Source of the DNA: Candidatus Rifleibacteriota bacterium
GTDB taxonomy: Bacteria; Muiribacteriota; Ozemobacteria; Ozemobacterales; Ozemobacteraceae
Reading direction: 5' to 3'
Assembly: GCA_015232575.1 (NCBI GenBank)
Contig: JADFZL010000026.1
Location: 13,688-77,687, forward strand
DNA length: 64,000 nucleotides
Every line of letters starts with the position of its first letter. Position 1 is the stretch's first letter. Under the pieces are notes generated by a model that did no database searches, was not told the origin of the DNA, and saw nothing but the letters and a program-made list of their open reading frames with translations. The translations under genes were made by a program, and so were the position numbers. This document shows, piece after piece, positions 2,819 through 54,329 of the stretch.

Positions 2819-3556
2819 ATGACAGACAGAAGACTGTTTCGTATCGCCAGATCTCTCCATCAAAGGCAGCTTGACCTTATTATTGGTCTTGAAAAAGTTC
2901 ATGACCCGCACAACCTTGCTGCAATATTAAGAAGCGCAGATGCAACAGGAGTTGGAAAAGTTGTATGGGCACCAAACAATGAAAATCCGCTTCCACCCAA
3001 CCCGGAAGTCTCAAAAAGCAGCGAAAAATGGGTTGAACTTATCCAGACAACAAATTTTATTAATACCATGAAATCTTATAAAGATCAGGGGTTCAATATT
3101 GCAGCAACTCATCTGGGCAACACTTCCGTCGACTTCCGAACTCCAGACTGGTCGAAACCATGGGTTGTCATACTTGGCAATGAAAGGATCGGCTGCTCAA
3201 AGGAAATCCTGGAAATCTGTGACCTGAATATCCAGTTACCCATGATGGGACTTGTACAAAGTCTTAATGTTTCAGTTGCCACGGCGGTAATTCTTTATGA
3301 AATACAGCGTCAGAGGCAAAACAAGGGAATGTATTCACGTGTTTTACCTCCTGGTACAGTAAAAAGTCTTTTCGATTATTGGAAACTTGCAGAGGAAGGC
3401 ATTAAATTGGAAGATGTTCTTCAACCTCCGCCTTTTGAAATGGAAGTCCCTGATTCAGAACACCTTGATGGCAGAACAGCATTCCTTGAAAGAAGAAGAC
3501 TTGAAAAAGAGGCCAAACTTAAAAAAGCAGCTGAACACGTTGAGGAAATTCGATAG
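2819..3556 (+). CDS. trmH: TrmH/SpoU-family RNA 2'-O-methyltransferase
   Basis: SpoU motifs HDPHNLAAILRSADATGV and VVILGNERIGCSKEIL...LPMMGLVQSLNVSVATAVILYE. Confidence 0.8.
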   Translation: MTDRRLFRIARSLHQRQLDLIIGLEKVHDPHNLAAILRSADATGVGKVVWAPNNENPLPPNPEVSKSSEKWVELIQTTNFINTMKSYKDQGFNIAATHLGNTSVDFRTPDWSKPWVVILGNERIGCSKEILEICDLNIQLPMMGLVQSLNVSVATAVILYEIQRQRQNKGMYSRVLPPGTVKSLFDYWKLAEEGIKLEDVLQPPPFEMEVPDSEHLDGRTAFLERRRLEKEAKLKKAAEHVEEIR

Positions 3557-3602
3557 CCCTCAAAACTCCACGGTAACTCGGTAAATGGTGCGCATGCCCG
3601 TG

Positions 3603-3690
3603 CCATCTCGAACGAATGTGAGATATCTTATAAATACCAGATTTCTCCCTTCGGTCGAAATGACAAAATCAGAATTCTTGAGCTTAAGTT
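3603..3690 (+). repeat. Y-type conserved intergenic element, copy 1
   Basis: CATCTCGAACGAATGTGAGATATCTTATAAA...TTTCTCCCTTCGGTCGAAATGAC is nearly identical to 54157-54250 and to the reverse complement of 47107-47185. Confidence 0.6.
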
Positions 3691-3756
3691 GTACGCATGG
3701 GAAAATACCATGAGTTATTGCGCAGACGCTAGAAATGATTTAAAAAGGAAGCAGAA

Positions 3757-4242
3757 GTGTCATATATTGGTCAAGTAATTGAATTTAAAAACGATTCAGC
3801 TGTAATAGAGATAGGTGTTTTCAGTTCATGTAATAAATGCAGTGGATGCGGTGGTAAAAGCATTTTTGCAGGTTCGTCTGACAAGAAAAGAACTATTATC
3901 GCAAAGACCGGAAATCATTCGCTTCTGAAAGGTGACTTTGTTGAGGTTTCTCCAAAACCCGGCGCCCAATCAATGGCAGCACTTCTTGTATTTGGCATTC
4001 CATTATTCTTTTTCTTCATCGGACTTGTTTTCGGAACGTCTATACTTTCCATGTTCATTCAAATTGAGGCAAAAGACTGGATAAATCTTCTGCTTGGCTT
4101 TCAAGGATTGATAATGGGTTTTGCAGTATCTTTTCTGATAATAAAAATTGCCGGATTCGATTTTTTCATGCTTCAGGTAGAAAGAAAGATTTCCGAGGAA
4201 GAAATTAAAAACGCCGGGTCCTGTGATTTGGCTTCCCGCTAA
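3757..4242 (+). CDS. RseC/MucC-family protein (SoxR-reducing system / sigma-E positive regulator family)
   Basis: N-terminal G-V-x-E...CNKCSGCGG cysteine cluster followed by two hydrophobic helices, the typical RseC layout. Confidence 0.55.
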   Translation: MSYIGQVIEFKNDSAVIEIGVFSSCNKCSGCGGKSIFAGSSDKKRTIIAKTGNHSLLKGDFVEVSPKPGAQSMAALLVFGIPLFFFFIGLVFGTSILSMFIQIEAKDWINLLLGFQGLIMGFAVSFLIIKIAGFDFFMLQVERKISEEEIKNAGSCDLASR

Positions 4243-4808
4243 TAATTATTAACAACGTCTTCGGAGGGACGAAAACGCGGATCTTTTACTGCTTCGCTTT
4301 CTTCTTTTATTACAACAAGCACGGTCTGCTTATGTGATTGGGTCTTTCTACTGCCAGCTGGTTCAATTTCCGTAAGAATCTCAAGAATATAAGTACCCGT
4401 TGAGGTTGTATTTCCGGCAGTCGTCCCCTCAGAAATCTTAAATTCCTTGAGATGTTTTGTAAGGATTTGAGTTTTTCCATTTTCAACTCTTTCAAGTATG
4501 GGCGGAACAAACTTGTAGGAAATGTCCAAAAGGGCAACTCCTGATGGTTTTTTCAGTTCAAGTGTACTGTTTGAGTATTTAAAGGTACCCCTTCTGGCAG
4601 ACACGATATCTCTTTCAAGCGCTCTCAATGATATTTCGGCCTCGCCTGTCACAGCAGCTCTGGCTGCAGAAATAGACTGGTTCTCCTGAGCGCTTCTGAG
4701 AATGTAAAAAGCCCCTCCGCTGAGAATAACAAAAAGAAAAAGAGCGATAATGGTTTCGACAACAGTAAACGCCTTTTTGGTTAATCCTGAAGAACCCATA
4801 AAAAACAT
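4239..4808 (-). CDS. prepilin-type N-terminal cleavage/methylation domain protein (pseudopilin / minor pilin)
   Basis: N-terminus MFFMGSSGLTKKA|FTVVETIIALFLFVIL: class-III signal with Phe at +1, Glu at +5 and a hydrophobic helix. Confidence 0.7.
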   Translation of the reverse strand: MFFMGSSGLTKKAFTVVETIIALFLFVILSGGAFYILRSAQENQSISAARAAVTGEAEISLRALERDIVSARRGTFKYSNSTLELKKPSGVALLDISYKFVPPILERVENGKTQILTKHLKEFKISEGTTAGNTTSTGTYILEILTEIEPAGSRKTQSHKQTVLVVIKEESEAVKDPRFRPSEDVVNNY

Positions 4809-5224
4809 AATTCCTCTTTCTTCTTTTCGTTATTGTTTTTTGTCCAGCAAATTGTTGCTTTTATTTCAGAAATCGTCTTTTCAGAATTGTTGAATTTAGC
4901 TTTAACAAAGAGTTCAAAATCTTTTTGAGCTTTCTGAATATCAAGAATTTTCTGCAGATTCGTAATGTAAAACTGGCCGGGCATGTCAAATTCAGTTTGA
5001 GGAGCAAAAGACAGCTTCTGGAATTCCTTGTATGACTGGCTCATTACTTCGTTTTTCAAAGAATTCAGGATTTCCCTTGCCATAGCAAGCTTTGATGTTT
5101 CAACTGCTGTGGCAGAATATCCTGAGATGCTCTTGTAAATTGGAATCAGTCCAAGAATAAGGATAAAAATTGCAATTGTTATTTCCAAAATGGATAAACC
5201 AGAATCATATCTTCTGATATTCAC
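4781..5224 (-). CDS. prepilin-type N-terminal cleavage/methylation domain protein (pseudopilin / minor pilin)
   Basis: MNIRRYDSG|LSILEITIAIFILILGLI: G at -1, E at +5, hydrophobic helix. Confidence 0.7.
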   Translation of the reverse strand: MNIRRYDSGLSILEITIAIFILILGLIPIYKSISGYSATAVETSKLAMAREILNSLKNEVMSQSYKEFQKLSFAPQTEFDMPGQFYITNLQKILDIQKAQKDFELFVKAKFNNSEKTISEIKATICWTKNNNEKKKEELCFLWVLQD

Positions 5225-5242
5225 AAATAATCCCTCTTCAAA

Positions 5243-7693
5243 TTAATTCTTTGCATAGTCAAAGCGTGTCCACCTGGCACCAATTGAGCAGAAATATCTT
5301 TTCGGCTCATATTTCCCAACATCCCTCATCATTGCAAGCATCGTCGGAGAAAGCGAGTGAGATTCATAAAAAACCTCAATTCCATCAACCGATTTTCTAT
5401 CAAATTGATTAATAACTAAATTCCCTTTAATAGTCAAGTTATTTCCAGATTTATTCATTATACACTGATTTGAAAAACATGCTGCCTCAATAACACACGA
5501 ATTATGAACAAGAATAGCTCCTCTTCTGGCAATCAGTGAAAACACCGTTGGGGAATCTGAAGAATGCACTCGTCTTATATCAGCGTAAACATCGATCACA
5601 TCTTTTGCTACGAGAATTCCCCTACCCTTGACTTTCATTGGCGAACTGATTTTCAGATTTCCCTTGATATATGTAACACCATTACATAAGAATGTACCAT
5701 CTGCGTCAAAGCGCTGAGAGTCTGCCCAGAAATCTGATTCATTCTCATAAAAATAATTTGCCTTTTTTGCATACTGAAGCGGGCTGTACAAATTCGCCGG
5801 AAGATTAGCTGAAATATTTGGGTTCCAGCGGCTGGTGTCTGATGTGTCATAGGCAGGGTAATCCGGTAATCCGTATGGAACTTTTCCAATTTTATGGTTT
5901 GAATAAATCATTGTTTTATCGTCACTATAGTCATGTTCGGGTTGTACTTGCCCTGCAAATCGGGAATACTTCATGTCAAGATAACCTTCCAGTTTCAGTG
6001 AAAGTGGGTATTCGAGATGAAATTTTCCAAATAAAAGAACAGGGTTGGATAATTCTTCGTTAAATGAGATTATTTTCTTCAGTTCCTGACAACCTGGTCC
6101 GAATGTTTCTGAAAAATTGTCTAATTTTCCAGTATATGGAAAATCGAACCAGTAAAGCGGAGGTGGCGAATCACGCCAGGTTGCACTGAAAATACAGTTA
6201 AAAGTTTTAGCAGCTTTTTTATCCATTAACAGGGCATTGAACTCTGAAGAAAGTGGATCATTGGGAGTTCCAAGATAGATCGGTATTTCCATAGCTTTTG
6301 GTCCGGAATAATTCAGACGAACCATACCTGGAAAAGATGCAACCGACTCAAGGTTCGTAGTGGCATTTGCAGAAAAACCATCCGAAAGCTTTAAATACTC
6401 GCCACCTGGAAGATTATGTATTGTCATGGTAGCAGCCTGAGCTGGGTCCTGGAATTTCAGCTCGCTTCCTATTCCAGTCGGGACAGGGTCTGGTGATTCA
6501 ACAGCCCGTGAAGAATTGGCAACAAAGAAGGTATATTCCGGAGCGACCGGCATTGTATCTGAAACTTTTAAATCTTTTTCGGCAATCAGAATTCTTCTTA
6601 CAGGAACCAGATTAGCAGCAGGTTTGAATTCGACTATTGCCATGAAACGTATTTTCCCTGTTTTTTCAACAAAAGTATCATTTTTAAAGGAATTTGGTAC
6701 AGAATTTTTTATTACAGATGGAAGATTCTGAAATCGCAGACTGGCTGCCTGAAAAAGATAAGATGTGTTCCAGGAAATACTTTCCCAGCCAGTATTCATG
6801 AGTTTAGCGACAAGATTCGGCATTGAAAAGCTTCCGCCAACATCATCAAGTTTAAGGAATTTTTTGACAAGATCGTTGCAGTCTATTTCTCCATTCAGGG
6901 TCCATGTTAAAAGCGCTACATCAATTTCAATTTTATAGGCAATTACAGCAGGAGCTTTCTGCGAAAGGAAAAGTGTAACGTCCACAGCAGGAGGTCCTGG
7001 AACATCATGTGAAGGAGGTACAGGCAATTTGAAAGTCAATGTATAATCACTTGATAAATCGTTTTTAAGATTCTTGGGTGAACCACCTGAATATGAAAAT
7101 ATTGTGTCATAAAATTTGCCGGGATCGCCATGTGCCGGAGTTGATTTCTCTGAAATTCCGGTAACTGAATAATTTGGATCTTTCGAAGTTATTGCTGAGG
7201 CTGAAGAAATTAGTATATTCAGTGTTACTGAAGCAGTCCCGCCGAGATTTTGTATTACACTGCCGAGCGGTGAAAGAATTGGACAGGTTGAAGAATACTG
7301 ATAAGCAACCAAAAGATCGCTGTTAAGTTTTAATGGAGCATCAAGTCCGGATGTTGAACCAAGTGTTCCAGGAGTAACTCCGGCAGATGAATCAAGTAGA
7401 AGTGGCACCCGGAGAATCGCATACCATGGATTTGGAGCGGTTTTCTCATTATTCATGTGATCTTTTATGTATCGAATGCCAAGATCAACAGCGGCCTCAG
7501 CTAATGCTTCGGCTTTCTTTTCATTACTCAGTAATTTTGTTGAAAACCTTTTTGCAATAGTAGATCTTGAAAAGAAAAGAACTATTACCAGAAGAATAGC
7601 CAGAATACCAACAACAAAAATAAAAGCAGAACCAATTCGACACTTGCTTTTATTTTTGCAGAGTCTATTTAGTTGGTAATTTTCGATCTGCAC
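5243..7693 (-). CDS. large (816 aa) N-terminally anchored protein of the pseudopilin operon; C-terminal region looks beta-helix-like
   Basis: Single N-terminal TM (GSAFIFVVGILAILLVIVLFF). Co-oriented and overlapping with the upstream and downstream genes. No known family recognised. Confidence 0.6.
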   Translation of the reverse strand: MQIENYQLNRLCKNKSKCRIGSAFIFVVGILAILLVIVLFFSRSTIAKRFSTKLLSNEKKAEALAEAAVDLGIRYIKDHMNNEKTAPNPWYAILRVPLLLDSSAGVTPGTLGSTSGLDAPLKLNSDLLVAYQYSSTCPILSPLGSVIQNLGGTASVTLNILISSASAITSKDPNYSVTGISEKSTPAHGDPGKFYDTIFSYSGGSPKNLKNDLSSDYTLTFKLPVPPSHDVPGPPAVDVTLFLSQKAPAVIAYKIEIDVALLTWTLNGEIDCNDLVKKFLKLDDVGGSFSMPNLVAKLMNTGWESISWNTSYLFQAASLRFQNLPSVIKNSVPNSFKNDTFVEKTGKIRFMAIVEFKPAANLVPVRRILIAEKDLKVSDTMPVAPEYTFFVANSSRAVESPDPVPTGIGSELKFQDPAQAATMTIHNLPGGEYLKLSDGFSANATTNLESVASFPGMVRLNYSGPKAMEIPIYLGTPNDPLSSEFNALLMDKKAAKTFNCIFSATWRDSPPPLYWFDFPYTGKLDNFSETFGPGCQELKKIISFNEELSNPVLLFGKFHLEYPLSLKLEGYLDMKYSRFAGQVQPEHDYSDDKTMIYSNHKIGKVPYGLPDYPAYDTSDTSRWNPNISANLPANLYSPLQYAKKANYFYENESDFWADSQRFDADGTFLCNGVTYIKGNLKISSPMKVKGRGILVAKDVIDVYADIRRVHSSDSPTVFSLIARRGAILVHNSCVIEAACFSNQCIMNKSGNNLTIKGNLVINQFDRKSVDGIEVFYESHSLSPTMLAMMRDVGKYEPKRYFCSIGARWTRFDYAKN

Positions 7694-46980: not shown

Positions 46981-47106
46981 AAAATAGAACCTGGGGTTTA
47001 ACCACGGAAAACACGGAATTTAAACTTGAAAATTATTTGTACCTATCCAATAAATGGTGTATTATCTTCCCCGAATTATTGAGAAGATACGAATATTTGT
47101 AAGTTG

Positions 47107-47185
47107 ACAACTTTGCTGTCTTTTCGACCGAAGGGAGAAATCCTGCTTTTATAAGATCTCTCACATTCGTTCGAGATGACAGCTT
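47107..47185 (-). repeat. Y-type conserved intergenic element, copy 3 (inverted orientation)
   Basis: The reverse complement reads CTGTCATCTCGAACGAATGTGAGAGATCTTATAAAAGCAGGATTTCTCCCTTCGGTCGAAAAGAC. Confidence 0.6.
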
Positions 47186-47258
47186 AATTCAAGGTTAACA
47201 GGCAAATTTGACCGCTTTATTTGAAACTGACTACTGAATAGATAAGGCAGGGTAAGCG

Positions 47259-48593
47259 TTGAGAATAGCGTTAATAAAGCCTTCGTTTGGTGAGACATTT
47301 GGCAAACGTTACAGTTCCATGGCAATGATGGAACCACTGACGTTTGCCGTCCTTGCCGGTTTAACTCCGGCAAAGCATGAACTATTCTTTTTTGATGAGC
47401 GCATCGAAAATATCGACTTTGACAAAGGCTATGATCTGGCGGCAATTTCAGTTGAAACTTTTTCTGCAAGACGTTCTTCGCAGATTTACAATGAATTCCG
47501 AAAACGAAACATTCCCGTTATTTCGGGCGGTTTTCATCCAACTCTCATCCCTGAGGAAGTCACTTCATACTCAGATGTTGTTGCGATAGGCGAAGCAGAG
47601 AATATCTGGCCTCAAATTCTTGCTGACGCAGAAAACAATAAGCTTCAGAAAATATACCGCTCACAGAATTTGTCTTCCCAATTTTCTGTTGTTACGGACA
47701 AGTCTGTTTTTAACGGGAAGAAGTACCTTCCGATTTCATTAGTACAATTTAATCAAGGCTGCATACACAATTGTGATTTCTGTTCAGTACGACAATTCTA
47801 TTCAGGGAAAACCAGACAGCGTGCTATCGATGAGGTTTTAAGAGAAATTTCTGCACAGAAAAAGAATTTTATTTTTTTTGTTGACGACAACATAATTTCC
47901 CATAAAGATGCTATAAAAAAGCTCCTCAGAGAACTCAAGGGAATGAATCTGAGGTGGACAGCCCAGTCAAGTCTTGCTGTTGCAGAAGACGATGAATTGC
48001 TGCAACTGGTAGTTGAAAGCGGCTGTTTTTCACTGATTATTGGCCTGGAATCACTGAACCCGATGAACCTTGAAAAGATGAATAAAGGCTGGGCAAAGCA
48101 CTTTGGCGGATACAAAGGTGCATTGGATAAGCTTAAAGATCACGGTATAATGGTTTATGGAACTTTCGTTTTTGGTTATGATTTTGATGATATTGATTGT
48201 TTTTCCAGAACTGCTGATTTTGCAATTGAAAGAAAACTGTTTATGGCCAATTTTAATATATTGCAGCCTTTTCCAGGGACACCGGTTTATGAAACACTTA
48301 AGAGTCAGAATCGTCTTATTTTTGAAAAATGGTGGCTCGATAAGCGCTATAGTTGGAATCAGACAGCATTCATTCCTCTCAGAATGACACCTGAGCAATT
48401 ATCTGAGGGCGTTACAAGTGTACGCAAAAAGTTTAATTCGATATCCGGAATTTTCCAGCGGGCAATTGATCTGAAAGCAAATTTAAGTGATCTTTTCAGT
48501 GCGATGATATATTTTACAGGAAACGTTGTATCGAGGCATGATATCCACAGAAAAACCAATCTGAAACTCGGATTCAAAGATGAGAAAATATAA
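47259..48593 (+). CDS. B12-binding-domain radical SAM protein (paralog 1)
   Basis: N-terminal cobalamin-binding-like domain and CxxxCxxC (CIHNCDFCSV). TTG start. Confidence 0.7.
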   Translation: MRIALIKPSFGETFGKRYSSMAMMEPLTFAVLAGLTPAKHELFFFDERIENIDFDKGYDLAAISVETFSARRSSQIYNEFRKRNIPVISGGFHPTLIPEEVTSYSDVVAIGEAENIWPQILADAENNKLQKIYRSQNLSSQFSVVTDKSVFNGKKYLPISLVQFNQGCIHNCDFCSVRQFYSGKTRQRAIDEVLREISAQKKNFIFFVDDNIISHKDAIKKLLRELKGMNLRWTAQSSLAVAEDDELLQLVVESGCFSLIIGLESLNPMNLEKMNKGWAKHFGGYKGALDKLKDHGIMVYGTFVFGYDFDDIDCFSRTADFAIERKLFMANFNILQPFPGTPVYETLKSQNRLIFEKWWLDKRYSWNQTAFIPLRMTPEQLSEGVTSVRKKFNSISGIFQRAIDLKANLSDLFSAMIYFTGNVVSRHDIHRKTNLKLGFKDEKI

Positions 48594-53989: not shown

Positions 53990-54011
53990 TTTTCAGAATT
54001 TTCTAAAAAAC

Positions 54012-54050
54012 CAGACCTGTCCAGTTTACATTCTGATCTGGACAGGTCGT
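54012..54050 (+). terminator. terminator hairpin (11-bp perfect stem GACCTGTCCAG / CTGGACAGGTC)
   Basis: Immediately after the stop codon. The T-tract is weak. Confidence 0.5.
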
Positions 54051-54156
54051 TAGATTTCTGTTTCAATATATCGTTTTTGTTAAACCGAAATTTGCCTTCT
54101 AAGTAGGCAAAATCTTAAAGAAGGAAGCAAATTTGCGTGTTAACATTTGGGTGGGC

Positions 54157-54250
54157 TGTCATCTCGAATAAATGTGAGATATCTGATAAAAGCGAGATTT
54201 CTTCCTTCAGTCGAAATGATATAGTAGAAATTCTGAAGCTTAAATGACTC
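54157..54250 (+). repeat. Y-type conserved intergenic element, copy 2
   Basis: CTGTCATCTCGAATAAATGTGAGATATCTGATAAAAGCGAGATTTCTTCCTTCAGTCGAAATGAT...GAAATTCTGAAGCTTAAATGAC. Confidence 0.6.
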
Positions 54251-54329
54251 CTTTATTAAGATTTGCTGTACAAAGGTAACTATGGGTTTGAGAGTTTATG
54301 ATTAAGTACGAGTCGGATATGGGAAAGAG

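Follow-up and report, generated by a model that had tools for sequence, protein, structure and literature searches.

Three intergenic regions of the 64-kb stretch of DNA analyzed here (the window) share a short repeated sequence, which raises the question of whether these sites serve the genes beside them, encode a structured RNA, or are copies of a mobile repeat. A first-pass annotation had described the sequence as a three-copy repeat with one copy inverted. A degenerate 25-nt pattern, CATCTCGAAYRAATGTGAGAKATCT, matched the window exactly three times, at 3604-3628 (+), 54160-54184 (+), and 47154-47178 (-), and it matched none of 100 dinucleotide-preserving shuffles. Pairwise blastn of the conserved cores of these copies (c1, c2, and c3, in the order just given) returned identities of 90.3% for c1 and c3 (62 nt), 86.7% for c1 and c2 (60 nt), and 87.1% for c2 and c3 (62 nt). 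The pattern matches, the shuffles, and the 87 to 90% pairwise core identity thus bear out the three-copy repeat. A fourth copy within the 64-kb window was found neither by nhmmer with all heuristic filters off (--max) nor by blastn-short.

The core is 65 bp long in all three copies and occupies 3601-3665 (+) in c1, 54157-54221 (+) in c2, and 47117-47181 (-) in c3. The inversion of the third copy is therefore confirmed, whereas the coordinates first assigned to the repeat, although roughly right, cut across the real unit. The c1 core comprises two TGTC-tagged hairpins arranged head-to-head, with a left arm at 3601-3628, a variable spacer at 3629-3638, and a right arm at 3639-3665; its profile score is 74 bits on the forward strand versus 22 bits on the reverse (nhmmer). 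An internal inverted repeat noted earlier (ATCTC...GAGAT) is present and corresponds to the stem of the left hairpin. Outside the cores lie flanks belonging to a larger element, referred to below as the carrier. With these flanks included, the copies extend approximately over 3566-3699 (+) for c1 (from alignment, the flanks being those of a decayed MITE), 54129-54256 (+) for c2 (decayed flanks), and 47087-47210 (-) for c3, whose flanks read CAAATTTGCCTGTTAAC on the left and ...GTTGTCAACTTACAAATATTCGTAT on the right.

The window belongs to a Candidatus Riflebacteria MAG, and its transketolase and SpoU proteins show 100% identity to NCBI entries under this name. All three copies are intergenic and each lies between plus-strand genes, c3 itself being on the minus strand. 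The flanking gene pairs are an SpoU-type methylase with RseC/MucC, a transketolase with a B12-binding radical SAM enzyme, and two large proteins without Pfam hits. Gene positions agree with the earlier remark that two copies precede plus-strand genes, at distances of ~90 to 110 nt. The genes flanking c1, c2, and c3 are mutually unrelated, and the similarity between copies ends well short of them, which excludes a segmental duplication.

Anatomy of the core

The core unit reads 5'-TGTCAT x TCGAACGAATGTGAGA y ATCT, spacer, AGATTTCTCC(C NNN G)GTCGAAATGACA-3'. It is ~55 to 95 bp long, and its spacer may be 4 to 45 nt of any sequence. Among 134 distinct instances the edges of the core are sharp, with conservation ending abruptly at TGTCAT on the 5' side and at ATGACA on the 3' side, and about 24 positions that the search pattern left unfixed are conserved in at least 84% of these instances, most of them in 87 to 98%. 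Despite its palindromic look the core is polar, as its profile scores ~62 to 80 bits in the forward direction versus 9 to 25 bits in reverse.

These features describe two similar but non-identical REP-like hairpins placed head-to-head; on its own strand, each starts with an unpaired TGTC tag and is read from there toward the interior. Both arms follow one plan: after a 5-bp stem (AUxUC/GAyAU) come the conserved GA...GA bracket, an apical stem of 2 bp, and a loop. The loop is GAAU (4 nt) in the left arm and a 3-nt GNA in the right arm in 77 of 110 instances, and the tail is CT. Tag columns L-7 to L-4 carry T in 120, G in 126, T in 127, and C in 128 of the 134 instances, with the right arm mirroring the tag as GACA; CGTC variants of the tag are present in loci L024, L052, and L072. 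The stem begins A-U, U-A in 125 to 129 of 134 instances and is nine positions long, two of which are the conserved G.A/A.G bracket and are not Watson-Crick. Tandem sheared G.A pairs could arise within this bracket. In DNA, both tandem G.A pairs and mini-hairpins of the C-GNA-G type have unusually high stability.

Every pattern-defined unit of left arm, spacer, and right arm has TGTC...GACA on the outside, an arrangement partly imposed by the search pattern, and tail-to-tail junctions occur only between neighboring units. Pairs of left and right arms lying kilobases apart were considered as a possible autonomous element and rejected, as they proved to be only neighboring independent units and cross-matching variants.

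Two folds can be drawn for this sequence. As a naked single strand, the core folds as one long imperfect hairpin (~ -14 kcal/mol as DNA, z of ~ -4). Alternatively, each arm may form its own local hairpin; energy minimization predicts exactly this hairpin for each arm, although with a weak fold that does not surpass shuffled sequence. Covariation distinguishes the two models. Among 128 distinct cores the x/y pair is CG in 70, TA in 44, AT in 4, GC in 3, and a non-pair in 7, so that all four Watson-Crick pairs occur, and a second covarying pair, in the right arm, is CG in 74 and TA in 22. When 78 distinct arm pairs were scored, the two-hairpin model left 96.5% of cells paired, with 36 double-sided changes compared to 9.2 ± 2.3 in shuffles, a count reached by none of 500; because the search patterns predetermine the majority of stem and loop positions, the information here comes from just two pairs. 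The one-long-hairpin model, applied to the same 78 arm pairs, left 89.4% paired, with 6 double-sided changes compared to 2.3 ± 1.4 in shuffles (11 of 500 reached this count), and several of its pairs were frequently broken. In particular, the x:A pair that the long hairpin predicts holds in just 22 of the 78, the base facing x there staying A. The covariation of x with y, together with this broken x:A pair, speaks for a pair of local hairpins and against one long hairpin. The case for the arm hairpins is accordingly made by covariation at two pairs, their thermodynamics being no better than those of shuffles, and we infer that such weak hairpins are stabilized by protein.

Distribution, carriers, and the state of the window copies

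The core is not confined to the window, and the many further copies have conserved termini. A two-block pattern scan covering one genome per GTDB species placed it in 18 loci, whose hosts are three Riflebacteria species (nDJH6bin19, CG2_30_54_10, and MM_PC_MetaG.mb.182), one member of the Pseudomonadota, two Gammaproteobacteria, and one Sandaracinaceae MAG. A scan with a second pattern found it in at least 120 metagenome stretches. The GC content of the host contigs ranges from 34 to 65%, and the distribution among genomes is patchy. Many MAG contigs terminate at a copy, as is expected of a high-copy repeat, and the repeat thus accounts for the frequent breaks of Riflebacteria MAG contigs at these sites. 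The core had no blastn match in PLSDB plasmids or INPHARED phages, and a scan of IMG/VR viral contigs found none. A literature search with the sequence strings of the element and their variants returned no relevant paper.

Copies are intergenic, including between divergent genes. At ~72 instances where the orientation of the flanking genes could be scored, the arrangements were ++ in 27, -- in 20, +- (convergent) in 14, and -+ (divergent) in 11, and no bias was seen.

Variants of the core also occur in other settings. The first 1,000 positions of locus L090 (1-1000, metagenome contig Ga0189276_10092) contain at least seven tandem units of a core variant on the minus strand, with a period of ~126 bp. 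In this variant an additional small hairpin takes the place of the CCCTTCG segment of the right arm; its sequence is ATCGATGCTTTGCATC, except in the last unit, where it is GTCCCGACAGTTTTCGGGAC. The units are interleaved with short repeats of the CACGAATG type. Related arms that have other stems and loops and keep the TGTCAT...GA...GA...ATCT plan lie at L003 6444-6471, L032 2371-2398 and 7845-7872, L015 96-123, L023 40-67, L072 961-988, and other places; examples are TGTCATTCCGAACGAATGTGAGGAATCT, TGTCATTTCGAGCGCAGTCGAGAAATCT, and AGATTGCTTCGCTTCGCTCGCAATGACA. The presence of such related hairpin arms on the same contigs suggests a far larger superfamily. Spurious ORFs read through the related repeats, as at L034 505-1029.

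In nDJH6bin19 and CG2_30_54_10, two genomes rich in intact copies, the core lies mid-way in an element of ~125 bp with 18-bp TIRs, CATA[AT]GCGCT[TA]ACTTAGG ... C[TC]TAAGT[AT]AGCGC[GA]TATG. Flanking direct repeats of 8 to 10 nt, each different in sequence, were found at 6 of the 11 Riflebacteria elements having both TIRs, for instance CCCACGACCG (L018) and CCCCATGCA (L016). The best flanking repeat scored a mean of 4.7, compared to 1.18 ± 0.61 in 200 shuffles (shuffle maximum, 2.8). Intact carriers fold into a long hairpin (z of ~ -6) and are without coding capacity. Given its TIRs and its target-site duplications of 9 to 10 bp, this ~125-bp Riflebacteria element is a true MITE, and such duplications are the signature of a MITE moved by a transposase making staggered cuts. 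A parent insertion sequence for the carrier, which would be expected to be IS4-like with ends matching CATAAGCGCTTACTTAGG, was not found in the loci around copies. The ends of IS231, which we take to be CATGCCCATCAACTTAAGAA, start with CAT and have ACTTAAG at the same offset as in the carrier TIR. IS231 generates duplications of 10 to 12 bp.

Other hosts have other carriers. One is a family with GAGCCTCTTGCAAAACTC ends and apparent duplications of 4 to 5 bp (judged by eye in a few copies, without a shuffle control), and another is a family built upon CGTAAAAAGTCG. In Gammaproteobacteria MAGs the carrier consists of inverted GTAG-tagged REP-like sequences, and elsewhere the core has no recognizable carrier. 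The GTAG case can be seen at L009 7560-7700 and L011 1250-1370, where an inverted GTAG-tagged REP-like sequence, GTAGGAGCGGCTTTAGCCGCGAA, brackets the core, placing a TGTC pair within a GTAG pair. Directly at the core's own ends, neither target-site duplication nor extended pairing rose above shuffled controls, and no conserved target was seen. No core-less carrier was found in the loci examined, where every true TIR match adjoins a core; one extra TIR match of family A was set aside as a chance match in coding sequence.

Aligned to the Riflebacteria carrier, the flanks of the window copies are recognizably homologous but degenerate. The right end of c1, ...CTTAAGTTGTACGCATG, is homologous to the Riflebacteria TIR, CTTAAGTAAGCGCGTATG, and AAATTTGCGTGTTAAC in the left flank of c2 is common to c3, as is CAAATTTGCNTGTTAAC on the left side of both copies. 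A sigma-54 or sigma-70 promoter was considered in this common left flank and rejected, as the GG/GC spacing is not kept between copies and the scans were negative. At c1 an extra stretch of ~10 nt, TGCGCATGCC, with the palindrome GCGCATGC, occupies 3589-3600 and separates the core from what is presumed to be the left arm of the carrier, and the hexamer CGCATG from this region reappears at the right end of the copy (3694-3699). The extra bases and the recurrence of CGCATG make the true left boundary of c1 uncertain.

Each window copy also departs from the intact core. The tag of c1 is mutated to TGCC and its covarying x/y stem pair is a C/T mismatch. The most decayed of the three, c2, has the left loop CGAATAAATG in place of CGAACGAATG, C/T at x/y, a right arm with TTCTTCCTTCA, and the end GATA in place of GACA; its 62 bits are the lowest score among full copies. 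The left hairpin of c3 is intact, with C/G at x/y, and its right arm ends in GAAAAGACA, which breaks one stem pair. Fold z scores are -1.1 for c1, +0.8 for c2, and -3.5 for c3, compared to the value of about -6 for intact carriers. Target-site duplications, present in the Riflebacteria relatives at 9 to 10 bp, were not recognizable around c1, c2, or c3. In the two nearest Riflebacteria, the neighborhoods of the SpoU and transketolase orthologues have no copy, and because gene order differs there these are not clean empty sites. Given the degenerate carrier ends, the absence of a recognizable duplication, and the hairpin-breaking substitutions, the three window copies are best read as old, partly decayed relics without a demonstrated role for the neighboring genes.

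Several features of the surrounding DNA were recorded alongside. A pseudopilin-like gene cluster adjoining c1, at 4239-7693 (-), encodes proteins of 189, 147, and 816 aa and is kept in the related Riflebacteria MAG JADFXM01 (L142 8830-12315, minus strand; 210, 152, and 808 aa). The gene between this cluster and SpoU is RseC/MucC in the window versus a DJ-1/rubrerythrin fusion in JADFXM01, indicating a variable junction. Between a 731-aa gene and c2, in the region of 54005-54050 and 54091-54111, there are two palindromes. One, CCAGACCTGTCCAG...CTGGACAGGTCG, directly follows the stop codon of that gene and is probably its terminator hairpin; the second, TTTGCCTTCTAAGTAGGCAAA, has a terminator-like score when read on the minus strand. 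Mechanically called ORFs at 47161-47469 (-) (102 aa) and 3421-3606 (-) (61 aa) run into or through c3 and c1, the former ending in ...NLELSCHLERM within the c3 element. In all likelihood neither is a real gene, and both are best left out of the gene annotation.

Proposed mechanism and alternatives

Taken together, these observations make it probable that the window repeats are decayed copies of a two-layer non-autonomous mobile DNA element. The inner layer would be the TGTC-tagged hairpin pair, whose structure is described above and whose movement we infer from its distribution. Selection on local hairpins suggests that the core is recognized in single-stranded form, most likely as single-stranded DNA, by an enzyme encoded elsewhere and acting in trans, in parallel with what has been proposed for REP/REPIN elements. 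The outer layer, established in the sister genomes, is the ~125-bp Riflebacteria MITE, presumably moved by cut-and-paste or copying by a DDE-type transposase in trans, as its 9- to 10-bp target-site duplications imply. In other phyla the core resides in different carriers or is naked.

The loci around copies offer no candidate for the mobilizing enzyme. Among 1,193 ORFs near copies there was no recurrent protein family, transposases and RAYTs included, so it is the distribution of the naked core that points to its movement. A tblastn search across ~950 kb around copies, made with an approximate query sequence, gave no hit to an IS200-like TnpA; the best match was rejected as a transposase, as it lies in a 467-aa ORF that by eye resembles a purF-type amidophosphoribosyltransferase. 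Nor did we find a later paper naming an enzyme for CGTC-type repeats. We raise tentatively, as a possible if doubtful extension, that the TGTC-tagged ~60-nt hairpin pair is the recognition module of a horizontally spreading single-strand enzyme system, the "missing" enzyme that would mobilize or process members of the CGTC/TGTC-tagged REP superfamily. If true, this would explain why the asymmetric core, with its GA brackets and 12-nt loop, is near-invariant across Riflebacteria, Proteobacteria, and Myxococcota in spite of differing carriers, and the conserved GAACGAAUGUGA hairpin would be a precise bait for that enzyme.

Of the competing explanations, the strongest, which we nevertheless consider unlikely, is domestication: a structural element of DNA or mRNA that is retained for a host function. 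Such an element might be where a nucleoid, gyrase, or IHF-type protein binds, or it might be an intergenic mRNA hairpin that acts against 3' exonucleases or uncouples adjacent genes, as is the case for some E. coli REP/BIME sequences. Roles of this kind have been proposed in the REP literature (Di Nocera, De Gregorio and Rocco 2013, BMC Genomics 14:522, PMC3733652). Host function would also fit a core that is better kept in the window copies than their carrier flanks are and is near-identical over hosts of such different GC content, as well as the position of all three window copies between co-oriented genes. However, the wider set shows no orientation bias relative to flanking genes and includes copies between divergent genes. 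Hairpin-breaking changes in three of three window copies, the absence of the SpoU-side copy from two related Riflebacteria, the patchy occurrence among genomes, and the lack of a common promoter or terminator signal likewise speak against retention for the host.

A structured RNA gene or a cis-regulatory RNA is in our judgment quite improbable. The candidates would be an sRNA family, a ribozyme, or an RNA motif that binds protein and is spread by mobile carriers. In favor of such an RNA, there is covariation through four Watson-Crick types, and the GA...GA bracket and the GNA and GAAU loops fit RNA motifs. Folded as RNA, the GA-bearing strand is also slightly better than its complement in both arms (-6.2 versus -4.7 and -5.0 versus -3.1 kcal/mol). 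Yet the GA-type hairpins are on opposite strands, so that a single transcript carries only one of them, and G-U intermediates are too few to tell which strand would be transcribed. Orientation is unbiased here as well, and neither a consistent sigma-70-like promoter nor an intrinsic terminator accompanies the copies. Rfam gave no hit in the window at the gathering score, and at an E value of ≤1 in four loci the lone hit was a chance match to MIR1444 (E = 0.82). By eye we saw no hammerhead core (CUGANGA/GAAA; CUGANGA is absent) and no other small-ribozyme core. The first-pass annotation had offered "MITE/REP-like or sRNA family" as a single suggestion, and its two halves fared differently. The MITE/REP-like half is upheld by occurrence in many genomes and in all orientations, by the TIRs and duplications, and by the hairpin pair, whereas the sRNA half finds no Rfam family, strand bias, or consistent promoter or terminator behind it.

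The last explanation, a shared promoter or operator of the downstream genes or else a segmental duplication, is extremely unlikely. Two copies do lie ~90 to 110 nt before plus-strand genes and the terminal ATGACA resembles a -35 hexamer, but one copy, the third, has the opposite orientation, the ~72 instances include all four arrangements of neighboring genes, a promoter scan found nothing in or common to the three copies, and a duplication is countered by unrelated flanking genes that the similarity does not reach. The orientation data essentially refute the promoter/operator reading, in line with the initial view that the repeat is not a simple promoter.

Comparison with known repeat systems

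We return, then, to the two-layer mobile element. The closest known class for its core is that of the CGTC/TGTC-tagged REP head-to-head dimers, a likeness drawn from the published description of the class. In that description (PMC3733652) the superfamily, tagged CGTC and often TGTC, includes Neisseria dRS3 and Rickettsia RPE-4/RPE-6. Its members are described as having 8- to 9-bp stems that start with complementary A,T, loops of 4 to 5 nt, and a short unpaired tail with the consensus CCA. They mostly pair head-to-head with the tags outermost; these dimers are often heterodimers, and the partners lie 1 to 100 bp apart. They occur in several phyla with no transposase associated, and some dimers lie within longer palindromes. 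Four families, CGTC-1 to CGTC-4, are named there, and Riflebacteria and Myxococcota are not among the hosts listed in that description. The strings GTCATT, GTCATC, CGAAATGAC, and GGAATGAC are absent from the supplements of the paper, which carry no sequences.

Measured against this description, the core agrees in its (C/T)GTC end tag and in its dimers with tags outside, often heterodimers with partners 1 to 100 bp apart, and it agrees in part in its A,T stem start, stem of ~9 positions, short loop, and short tail. It is likewise intergenic, present in several phyla, without a transposase near copies (as seen in the DNA around them), and nested in palindromic carriers. It differs from the superfamily as described in that its stem is interrupted by the conserved GA/GA bracket, its loops are 3 to 4 nt, and its tail is CT, not CCA; in Riflebacteria, moreover, it travels inside a target-duplicating MITE.

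Two further systems resemble one layer each. Like REPIN/RAYT elements and the BIMEs of E. coli, the core consists of two inverted, slightly different REP hairpins with a spacer, the whole being foldable as a long hairpin, and it is high-copy and intergenic, with tandem clusters (L090). Unlike the GTAG-tagged REPIN-RAYT system, its tag is TGTC and no RAYT was found in the loci around copies; and whereas REPINs are vertically inherited and lineage-specific according to published abstracts, the core is near-identical across phyla. The carrier, for its part, resembles bacterial MITEs such as the Correia elements and the IS231-derived MICs of the IS4 family in having TIRs, target duplications, no coding capacity, and a long hairpin. 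It is unlike these MITEs in that its center is occupied by a hairpin pair of REP type, which can be found beyond this carrier as well.

For annotation, the three sites in the window should be entered as repeat or MITE relics and not as regulatory elements or sRNA genes. The TGTC/CGTC-tagged REP class is extended to Riflebacteria and Myxococcota, and a concrete sequence and structure are now available with which to seek the enzyme that moves or processes such repeats. This is a known kind of bacterial repeat; what sets it apart is a sharply bounded, asymmetric hairpin pair kept almost base for base across phyla, in several unrelated MITE-like vehicles.
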